A stretch of 64,000 nt of DNA from Gammaproteobacteria bacterium (lineage in GTDB: Bacteria > Pseudomonadota > Gammaproteobacteria > Eutrophobiales > Eutrophobiaceae), in contig CBDEUK010000002.1 of assembly GCA_965243205.1 (NCBI GenBank), forward strand, positions 2,240,001 through 2,304,000. The letters are read 5' to 3'. Shown piece after piece: positions 14,350 through 15,482 of the stretch (positions are counted from its first letter, which is position 1; each line of letters begins with the position of its first letter). Made by a program: the position numbers and the translations under genes. Below the pieces are notes generated by a model. The model was not told the origin of the DNA and did no database searches. It saw only the letters and a list, made by a program, of their open reading frames with translations.

Positions 14350-14553
14350 ATGTTAATTTTAACTAGAAGAGTTGGCGAATCGTTGATGATTGGCGATGAT
14401 GTCAATGTTACCGTTCTAGGTATACGTGGTAACCAAGTCAGAATTGGTGTTAATGCACCAAAAGAAGTTTCTGTACACCGCGAAGAAATTTACGAGCGTA
14501 TACAACAAGAAAAGAGCGGCAATGCACCATCGTCTCAAGACGAACAAGAGTAA
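14350..14553 (+). CDS. csrA: carbon storage regulator CsrA/RsmA
   Basis: [17 protein letters not shown]...VHREEIY. Confidence 0.99.
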
Positions 14554-14751
14554 TTAATATCAAGATATTTTTTTAAAAAAAGGATTTTTCTTGTTTAAAC
14601 AAAGCAAAATTTATTGCATTGCATGTGCACGTTAGTAAGGTTGCTATTTAAGCATGCAATATCATAAGTGTAGTTATCTATACCCTTAAATTTTTATTAT
14701 TGTCCTACTTTTTCTAGACTTTCAATGATCTAAAGATAAAATAAAACAAAC

Positions 14752-14875
14752 GGAGAGGTGGCCGACAATTTTGTCAGGAACAAAATTGGACATTTGAGCA
14801 AAGCGAAAATGGTACGAAGTACCGAAGCTCAGGATGAGCTGAGTCAACGGCTGAAGGTAATCGACGAAGTCGATT
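14752..14875 (+). other. truncated tRNA-Ser 5' duplicate with a structured CAGGA-hairpin insert in the D-loop
   Basis: GGAGAGGTGGCCGA [82-nt insert] CGGCTGAAGG matches the 5' end of the downstream tRNA-Ser; ends in the hairpin AATCGAC-GAA-GTCGATT. Confidence 0.85.
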
Positions 14876-14920
14876 TTAAGAGTAAGCTAAACAATATAAT
14901 ATTTTAATAATATATATAAC

Positions 14921-15012
14921 GGAGAGGTGGCCGAGCGGCTGAAGGCGCTCCCCTGCTAAGGGAGTATACGGTTTATCCCGTATCGAGGGTTCGAATCCCT
15001 CTCTCTCCGCCA
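14921..15012 (+). tRNA. tRNA-Ser(GCT)
   Basis: Cloverleaf with anticodon arm CTCCC-ctGCTaa-GGGAG, long variable arm, GGTTCGAATCC and encoded CCA. Confidence 0.97.
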
Positions 15013-15058
15013 TTTGACTATCTCGATCAAATCTATATTATTCGCCGTTCTTAATTAC

Positions 15059-15152
15059 GCGCCCGTAGCTCAGTGGACGACGTGCAGGAGCACAAGTGTC
15101 GCGAGAGGCAGGACGCCGATAGCGACGAGAGTACCGCAACACGAAGTGTTGC
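15059..15152 (+). other. truncated tRNA-Arg 5' duplicate with a structured CAGGA-hairpin insert in the D-loop
   Basis: GCGCCCGTAGCTCAG-TGGA [50-nt insert] AGAGTACC matches the 5' end of tRNA-Arg; ends in the hairpin GCAACAC-GAA-GTGTTGC. Confidence 0.85.
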
Positions 15153-15197
15153 TTAGATAGAACTTAAGTAAGTAACAATTTATACTTTTCATATAAC

Positions 15198-15274
15198 GCG
15201 CCCGTAGCTCAGCTGGATAGAGTACCTGGCTACGAACTAGGGGGTCGGAGGTTCGAATCCTTCCGGGCGCGCCA
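15198..15274 (+). tRNA. tRNA-Arg(ACG)
   Basis: 77-nt cloverleaf with ctACGaa anticodon loop, GGTTCGAATCC and CCA. Confidence 0.97.
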
Positions 15275-15283
15275 TTTAAAATA

Positions 15284-15305
15284 GCCACCTATCAGGTGGT
15301 TTTTT
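15284..15305 (+). terminator. intrinsic terminator after the tRNA cluster
   Basis: GCCACCT-atc-AGGTGGT followed by a T tract. Confidence 0.8.
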
Positions 15306-15482
15306 ATTTCATCAATAGTAAATCGTAATTCAAATACTCCATTTAATAATCATTGATATGCAAGAACTGCTTTGTATTTTTCTTGCAGTTACATAGATGC
15401 TCATCCACTTTAGTAATACCAATAGATAAATCGCAAACATTATCAAATCAATCCTCTTATTATGAAACTCCGAGGTAAATAG

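Follow-up and report, generated by a model that had tools for sequence, protein, structure and literature searches.

Introduction

Selfish repeats that lie in frame within essential genes are a textbook oddity, described mainly from Rickettsia, where the palindromic elements (RPEs) are roughly 100–150 nt long and belong to one genus. Short repeats of another kind are left by integrating elements at tRNA genes, where a direct repeat of part of the tRNA stands beside a restored intact gene; known tRNA-targeting integrases duplicate the 3′ part of the tRNA, not the 5′ part. In Coxiella, an A+T-rich gammaproteobacterium, one report describes QMITEs, small non-autonomous repeats with reported effects on proteins and small RNAs (PMC5896051). 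Hairpin repeats also build the sponge RNAs of CsrA: in CsrB, about 18 copies of CAGGA(U/A/C)G occupy hairpin loops, and one CsrA dimer can span a pair of sites separated by 10–63 nt, best when these are more than 18 nt apart (PMC7652899). The SELEX consensus of high-affinity CsrA ligands is RUACARGGAUGU, with the GGA in a hairpin loop (PMC4347634).

Here we analyse a unit upstream of tRNA-Arg(ACG) in a 64,000-nt stretch of gammaproteobacterial DNA (the window, meaning the whole stretch). This Arg unit is a composite cassette made of the truncated front of tRNA-Arg, a repeat in its D loop (type B) and a covarying tail hairpin, and we identify it with high confidence as a copy of an RPE-like, class-wide repeat residing in a conserved pseudo-tRNA leader cassette. 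With RPEs the repeat shares a short, hairpin-forming sequence dispersed in many copies, a place in frame in housekeeping genes and also in RNA genes, and the lack of its own coding capacity; many dispersed copies, in-frame gene copies and presence or absence at orthologous sites were all found. Unlike RPEs, it measures about 51 nt, occurs in many families of Gammaproteobacteria, carries CsrA-type GGA motifs in its loops and has a sub-lineage in the loops of partial tRNA copies beside intact tRNAs.

The locus also resembles the remnants of integrating elements in that a direct repeat of part of a tRNA stands beside the intact gene. Here, however, it is the 5′ part that is repeated, 139 bp away and with no integrase ORF or island, which does not fit an integrase-made attachment-site repeat; the repeat moreover sits inside a loop of the displaced fragment. 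Like Coxiella QMITEs (PMC5896051), the element is a small repeat, but on inspection it lacks terminal inverted repeats and target duplications. Compared with CsrB and RsmZ (PMC7652899), the unit likewise has GGA of the CAGGA(U/A/C)G type in hairpin loops, two sites within the bridging distance of a CsrA dimer and a build of repeated hairpin modules. It differs in having two sites only, in lying in a probable pre-tRNA leader and not in a separate gene, and in matching no Rfam model.

Architecture of the csrA–tRNA-Ser–tRNA-Arg locus

The window carries recA, recX, alaS, an aspartokinase-like gene and csrA, followed by tRNA-Ser(GCT) and tRNA-Arg(ACG) (Table 1). The csrA product gave a Pfam CsrA match of 94.8 bits at genome positions 2254350–2254508 (window 14350–14508). 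The Arg unit opens with the first 15 bases of tRNA-Arg(ACG) and then D-loop bases, one base fewer than in the tRNA, and holds tRNA positions 1 to about 27 only. Its start is a 13-mer identical to the start of tRNA-Arg, 139 nt upstream of it; among the 42 tRNAs of the genome, such exact 13-mer matches occur only at the Arg and Ser units. The sequence-only reading had described a tRNA-Arg 5′ copy with a two-hairpin D-loop insert and a trailing hairpin, and this description is borne out by the sequence, the tRNA calls and the centroid fold, which shows both insert hairpins and the tail hairpin. It was also right that the unit follows the plan of the Ser unit with a different insert, and that it is rich in G+C while the genome around it is A+T-rich (G+C contents: unit 62.8%, insert 64.7%, whole genome 36.7%). 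The tail hairpin derives from neither the tRNA nor the repeat.

Table 1. Features around the two tRNA genes, in window coordinates
Feature	Position	Strand	Evidence or remark
csrA, 67 aa	14350..14553	+	ORF; directly upstream of both tRNA units
Promoter-like site 5′ of Ser unit	14715..14742	+	9/12 hexamer matches, 16-nt spacer; consensus match only
Ser unit, four pieces	14752..14875	+	Sequence, fold z, covariation, model R3
tRNA-Ser(GCT) 5′ copy within Ser unit	14752–14765	+	
Type A four-hairpin module, D loop of Ser unit	14766–14847	+	
D-arm 3′ part of Ser unit	14848–14858	+	
Tail hairpin of Ser unit	14859–14875	+	
tRNA-Ser(GCT)	14921..15012	+	ARAGORN; Rfam tRNA 55.6 bits
Promoter-like site just 5′ of Arg unit	15014..15041	+	10/12 hexamer matches, 16-nt spacer
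tRNA-Arg 5′ copy: acceptor 5′ strand, D-stem 5′ strand, D-loop start	15059..15077	+	
Type B repeat copy, 50 nt, two-hairpin	15078..15127	+	R2 model, alignment with 81 other copies, pair counts
First hairpin of type B insert	15082–15093	+	GGA at 15087–15089
Second hairpin of type B insert, with internal loop	15098–15126	+	GGA at 15111–15113
D-arm 3′ strand and next tRNA-Arg bases, copied	15128..15135	+	D-stem pairs kept in related units
Tail hairpin of Arg unit, 7 bp, 3-base loop	15136..15152	+	Centroid fold, covariation
A+T-rich spacer, Arg unit to tRNA, 45 nt	15153..15197	+	
tRNA-Arg(ACG)	15198..15274	+	ARAGORN; Rfam tRNA 62.2 bits
Terminator-like hairpin 3′ of tRNA-Arg	15283..15301	+	Sole one on + strand from csrA to here

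Several simpler identities were set aside. Apart from the two intact genes, neither ARAGORN nor the Rfam tRNA model calls a tRNA here, so the unit is not a tRNA gene or a full pseudo-tRNA; a tRNA intron was dropped because the copy is truncated, and a known ribozyme because Rfam gave no match, here at E values up to 10. The folding energy of the Arg unit is unremarkable (z = −0.90; 42 of 200 shuffles fold equally well), and support for its structure comes from comparison across genomes instead. Contigs from the sequencing runs that hold the locus cover 14560–14957 and 15246–15340 and not the Arg unit, and those of four runs leave 15046–15180 uncovered. Two possible RNA runs gave no cover, and the run search turned up none of RNA from this organism, the small shares found being parts of tRNAs.

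Between the Arg unit and tRNA-Arg we found neither a promoter-like site nor a terminator-like hairpin, and the plus strand from the copy to the tRNA holds no ORF of 50 aa or more; one 72-aa minus-strand frame overlaps tRNA-Arg itself. There is no integrase or recombinase gene near the unit. Because it lies 45 nt 5′ of the tRNA, behind a promoter-like site, the Arg unit is probably a transcribed 5′ leader of tRNA-Arg, judging from these consensus elements. More generally, a promoter-like site 5′ of each unit and a sole terminator-like hairpin after tRNA-Arg make transcribed pre-tRNA leaders the simplest predicted state of both units. The leader sequence containing the promoter-like site of the Arg unit is conserved at orthologous loci, lies directly 5′ of tRNA-Arg in relatives that have no unit, and is present also in a spacer of another organism in the sample. 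On the plus strand between csrA and the Ser unit (window 14560–14750) no terminator-like hairpin was found and a 9-base inverted repeat is present; csrA transcripts might run on into the Ser unit.

The Arg unit is a recurring cassette in the family

We built a covariance model of the unit (R1) from four units and searched 126 family genomes with it. Twelve of them, our own among these, gave full-length matches of at least 70 bits, and many more gave weaker or partial ones (64 of 126 at E values up to 0.01); R1 also matched many places by its middle part only. Our genome has one match and the sister species 12. In an alignment of 24 units, which was fitted to the model and so favours the structure, 96.1% of the cells are paired and both sides have changed in 14 of 23 pairs, a result that none of 500 shuffles reached; in slid controls the paired fraction drops to 18–46%. 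The tail hairpin (helix 5) covaries most, with six of seven pairs changed on both sides, and the D-stem pairs (helix 1) are kept in related units.

A downstream tRNA was present in the stored locus of 17 of 21 units, and three of the other four reach a contig end. These tRNAs are Arg ACG (6), CCG (3), TCG (4) and CCT (2) and Leu (2), the gap to the unit being 38–45 nt in 15 of the 17. The first 14 bases have at most two mismatches to the unit's own tRNA in 12 of 17, and in two of 17 the acceptor-strand match is lost while the module is retained. We conclude that the tRNA part of the cassette matches its own downstream tRNA, and that the cassette stands about 40 nt 5′ of Arg (ACG, CCG, TCG, CCT) and Leu tRNAs in relatives. 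Tandem units occur.

The orthologous arrangement of csrA, tRNA-Ser, Arg unit and tRNA-Arg was found at five loci, a sixth being a public record identical to one of them. The sequence-only reading had proposed comparing such loci for presence or absence of the units, and the outcome was divided: the unit is there in some genera, decayed or replaced in others and absent from still others. One genus has a decayed Arg copy that has lost both GGA loops, one has a different GGA-hairpin module at the same D-loop site, and in one 28 nt of the leader are repeated along with the tRNA front. The Arg unit is absent at this locus in one genus of the family and in the sister species, and another sampled organism has a 39-nt spacer where it would be. 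The leader 5′ of the Arg copy resembles the leader that lies directly 5′ of tRNA-Arg where the unit is absent, which indicates that the copy holds the original position and that the working tRNA stands behind inserted material. Units occur also at Arg, Leu, Ser and Thr loci distant from csrA, so adjacency to csrA may only mirror a conserved csrA–Ser–Arg gene order.

Sister cassettes and partial tRNA copies

The Ser unit shares the plan of the Arg unit and has a different, longer insert (type A). Its folding z score is −2.66, 12 of 19 pairs covary across 11 copies, and it scores 97.6 bits with model R3. Matches to the type A insert were found in 90 of 126 family genomes, with at least 34 in the richest. 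The second type A copy of our genome is housed by a partial 3′ copy of tRNA-Thr(CGT), in its T loop, on the minus strand outside the window (contig C2, 664045–664129), after the tRNA and a hairpin; this copy ends with the acceptor strand of the real tRNA and CCA, mirroring the 5′ units. Sister cassettes built on the type A repeat sit in the D loop where the copy is of Ser and in the T loop where it is a 3′ copy.

The suggestion that other tRNA loci be searched for 5′ duplicates turned up none beyond Ser and Arg: a 5′ copy within 400 nt upstream accompanies two of 42 tRNA genes (Ser GCT and Arg ACG), and a 3′ copy within 500 nt downstream accompanies one of 42 (Thr CGT). All three partial tRNA copies of the genome carry a module. 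Across the sample, modules are inserted in the D, T, variable and anticodon loops of tRNAs, which are the exposed loops of the folded molecule. Three unrelated modules (type A, type B and a third) all place GGA in hairpin loops, and three different GGA-loop modules share the same D-loop site at orthologous loci.

Two further tRNA-related loci were noted. In L058 (genome G086), a nearly full tRNA-Gln-like copy, scoring 31.2 bits with the Rfam tRNA model and just over threshold, has both kinds of insert, the type B repeat in the variable region and a type A module in the T loop. In our genome, outside the window, five tightly clustered tRNA calls (Phe, Lys, Leu, Met and Ile-TAT; C2:1023781–1024724) duplicate tRNAs found elsewhere in it and are possibly of phage or island origin.

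The insert belongs to a repeat dispersed across Gammaproteobacteria

The second-hairpin pattern of the insert, scanned over one genome per prokaryote species, matched at least 120 stretches, and those listed are nearly all from Gammaproteobacteria, in many orders; with 16 fixed bases a few hundred chance matches are expected, and about a dozen of those listed look random. The second hairpin closes in 109 of the 125 matches evaluated. An 82-row alignment of copies gave a consensus of about 51 nt, with strong covariation in the first hairpin and next to no variation in the second. A model of the element alone (R2) was run on our genome and on 151 genomes of the class, one per family. It scored 64.1 bits on the insert of the Arg unit (15077–15127) and found matches in 30 of the 151, with at least 37 copies in the richest genome, 38 candidates being scored per genome, and many copies of identical score in one. 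Our genome has two copies, the insert and a weaker one (27.8 bits) that is intergenic and outside the window (C2:1071802–1071855, minus strand). The latter follows closely on a terminator-like hairpin; a gene starts about 60 nt further on, so this copy could be in a 5′ untranslated region.

Copies without tRNA flanks occur in ORFs, in intergenic DNA and in tandem arrays with a 51-nt period, which is what the sequence-only reading had itself named as evidence against an insert specific to tRNA-derived units, and that claim falls. A crude placement of 91 placeable copies gave 33 in sense, 17 in antisense (three of them tandem copies in a trehalase gene that are really sense), 32 outside frames and 9 ambiguous, with 14 more at locus edges. 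Pfam families were recognized in 14 of 16 spanning frames tested, the repeat adding 17 residues and tandem copies 34 and 51. The confirmed hosts are ClpB, Tgt, HsdM, DnaE, IleRS, NrdA, PheT, MetE, trehalase, a GH94 enzyme, a Mur ligase, YhdP, an FAD monooxygenase and an RDD protein. One host gene contains two copies of opposite orientation, one sense and one antisense. A frame of more than 900 aa in the sister species also contains a copy; no gene-borne copy was found in our genome. Antisense copies next to 3′ tRNA fragments were seen in one genus, and in three genomes of family genus g7 (L056, L060 and L067) the repeat occurs in one conserved non-tRNA context with no Rfam RNA.

All eight tRNA-loop copies in the 82-row alignment have a loop one base shorter than that of the gene-borne 51-nt form, and they come from the family Eutrophobiaceae as well as from distant orders. 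The shorter loop marks them as a separate lineage, free of a length divisible by three. Neither terminal inverted repeats nor a target-site duplication were seen on inspection of the insert borders against intact tRNAs or of the flanks of about 100 copies, which does not fit a classical MITE, and no transposase gene was linked to the copies in the flanks inspected. An integron attachment site and a REP element were considered and dropped, no matching end motifs being known to us. Rfam gave no match to canonical copies, hairpin arrays or recurrent loci in non-tRNA contexts, and keyword and sequence-string searches of the literature, within a scope of main texts and open journals, found neither the repeat nor the pseudo-tRNA units described. 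The behaviour of the repeat is that of mobile or selfish DNA.

GGA loops and the Csr context

The GGA triplets of the window copy are 24 nt apart. GGA is present in the first hairpin of 103 of 109 repeat copies of the class, a feature that the search pattern did not impose; 88 of the 109 have the form CANGGANG, and 12 match the whole 12-base SELEX consensus. The apical loop of the second hairpin is of the CsrB kind. Among the family units, GGA is found in the first loop of 21 of 24 and in the second loop of 22 of 24, even where the stems differ. The Arg unit thus has several GGA motifs in hairpin loops, as CsrA sponges do, with two sites being few for a sponge.

RsmY and RsmZ models had no match above cut-off in our genome. 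Sub-threshold matches were terminators, with the exception of one partial copy of the first hairpin after a groEL-like gene. This lone hairpin (C2:1432452–1432537, minus strand, outside the window; a sub-threshold RsmY match) follows directly on the groEL-like stop, nested in a longer stem and followed by a terminator. A scan with two activator-box motifs known to us, a weak test, found no box followed by a GGA-rich stretch. Nor did the Arg unit look like a separate transcription unit of the GacA/UvrY/LetA-dependent type, since a promoter-like site leads on to the tRNA with no terminator between. Clustering of GGA-loop hairpins was dropped as a genome ranking because it does not discriminate: about 7,000 hairpins pass a loose test genome-wide, and the top clusters are coding sequence.

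Besides the canonical csrA, our genome has a second csrA-family gene outside the window, on another contig of 460 kb (C1:26538–26693, minus strand; Pfam 89.2 bits). Across the class, csrA is present in 27 of 29 element-positive and 95 of 121 element-negative genomes, tallies that include the unpublished genomes G164 and G266 (2 of 151); this co-occurrence is compatible with a role in CsrA binding and is not discriminating. Three other loci, L053 (G041), L062 (G024) and L063 (G012), have many consecutive GGA-loop hairpins made from repeat-like pieces with no Rfam match, and could be the true multi-site CsrA sponge genes of the family.

Discussion

We propose that the tRNA-Arg promoter transcribes the cassette as a 5′ leader, which RNase P, cutting at the 5′ end of the tRNA, would release; both steps are predicted from consensus sites. 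Released or nascent, the leader would display two GGA loops 24 nt apart, which would suit published CsrA sites and the bridging distance of a CsrA dimer. On the strength of these motifs it may bind CsrA, whose gene lies 500 nt upstream, and serve as a small CsrA decoy produced in step with tRNA transcription. The tRNA-linked form would then be a distinct, retained sub-lineage of a repeat that is presumably mobile or selfish elsewhere. We hold this full reading, cassette identity together with predicted CsrA binding, tentatively; the element may be selfish DNA, a regulator decoy or both. The persistence of a 65% G+C insert in a 36.7% G+C genome speaks for this reading. Against it stand the number of GGA sites, two where known sponge RNAs have far more, the unremarkable folding energy, the units far from csrA and the non-discriminating presence of csrA. 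The decayed orthologous copy without GGA loops in one genus and the sister species without an Arg unit at this locus also weigh against it, as do copies in genes in both orientations and antisense copies beside 3′ tRNA fragments in one genus; because of the antisense copies, RNA-level CsrA binding cannot account for the whole repeat family. A bolder version, in which the 51-nt repeat is a mobile double CsrA site that rewires or titrates the CsrA regulon, with a sub-lineage domesticated in pseudo-tRNA leaders, seems to us unlikely. Under it, the output of CsrA decoy from tRNA promoters would scale with growth rate, here beside csrA. A corollary bolder still is that insertion into the exposed loops of tRNAs hints at an RNA or single-strand intermediate.

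The repeat might instead be a purely selfish miniature mobile element and its leader RNA have no role, an explanation we consider credible if somewhat doubtful. A transposase or recombinase supplied in trans would recognize its hairpins and loops at the DNA level, probably in single-stranded form, and tRNA loops would be favoured or tolerated landing sites where insertions survive only in a spare partial copy. Multi-copy, patchy spread (30 of 151 families), copies of identical score within a genome, tandem arrays of 51-nt period, in-frame copies of both orientations within essential genes, presence or absence of the unit at orthologous loci and copy numbers that differ sharply within a genus (R1 matches: one here, 12 in the sister species) all agree with it, and so do the modules in three of three partial tRNA copies. 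Three-base loops closed by C–G are frequent, and such loops are very stable in DNA hairpins. However, no terminal inverted repeats, target duplication or linked transposase were seen on inspection, the tRNA-linked copies form their own sub-lineage, and across genera with A+T-rich genomes the unit preserves its stems through compensatory changes and retains GGA in its loops. GGA loops are common to the different modules found at one site, and selfish DNA alone leaves the joint origin of partial tRNA copies and insert unaccounted for. Alternatively, repeat, short tRNA piece, tail hairpin, spacer and replacement tRNA front might move together as a miniature integrative cassette. Site-specific or homology-guided recombination would bring it into the D loop, or into the T loop in the case of 3′ forms, and it would restore the tRNA while displacing a fragment, as genomic islands do at tRNA genes. 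The upstream copy retains the original promoter and leader and the real tRNA has a new one, 28 nt of leader are repeated with the tRNA front in one genome, tail hairpins at different Arg loci look homologous and covary, the spacing is a constant 38–45 nt, tandem units occur and the 3′ forms mirror the plan at the T loop. We still find it improbable: no integrase or recombinase gene is nearby, no ORF lies between copy and tRNA, known tRNA-targeting integrases duplicate the 3′ part and here it is the 5′ part, and the bare 51-nt repeat inserts alone in genes.

Little probability attaches as well to a cis-acting leader unrelated to CsrA that would act on pre-tRNA-Arg by tuning its transcription, its processing by RNase P or RNase E, or its stability; the copy's acceptor strand could, for instance, compete for the 3′ strand of the tRNA. 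In favour of this, all units stand in the leader at one set distance from the tRNA, the copy's acceptor strand tracks its own tRNA and the D stem is kept, but the idea leaves the conserved GGA loops and the same repeat in genes unaccounted for, and two of 17 units have lost the acceptor-strand match and kept the module. Chance resemblance or an assembly artefact has a negligible probability. The contigs of locus-holding runs do not span the Arg unit, but the unit recurs in 11 other genomes at 70 bits or more, covariation supports its structure, and the exact 13-mer tRNA-start match is confined to the Arg and Ser units among 42 tRNAs. For the joint origin of partial tRNA copy and module, the candidates are a cassette that brings along a substitute tRNA part, a transient duplication that receives the insert in one copy and is later trimmed, and a single-strand or RNA intermediate.

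What looks like an RPE-analogous element is present in a fifth of the sampled gammaproteobacterial families, and we found no Rfam family or paper for it. Its pairing with partial tRNA copies (three of three here) poses a mechanistic puzzle about how tRNA genes survive insertions. The loops of the repeat reproduce the best-characterized binding motif of CsrA, a master post-transcriptional regulator. If CsrA binds the repeat, transposition can carry regulatory sites for a global RNA-binding protein to new places, and tRNA leaders could yield CsrA antagonists; the latter would tie the Csr system to the transcription of tRNAs in organisms with no known sponge RNA.
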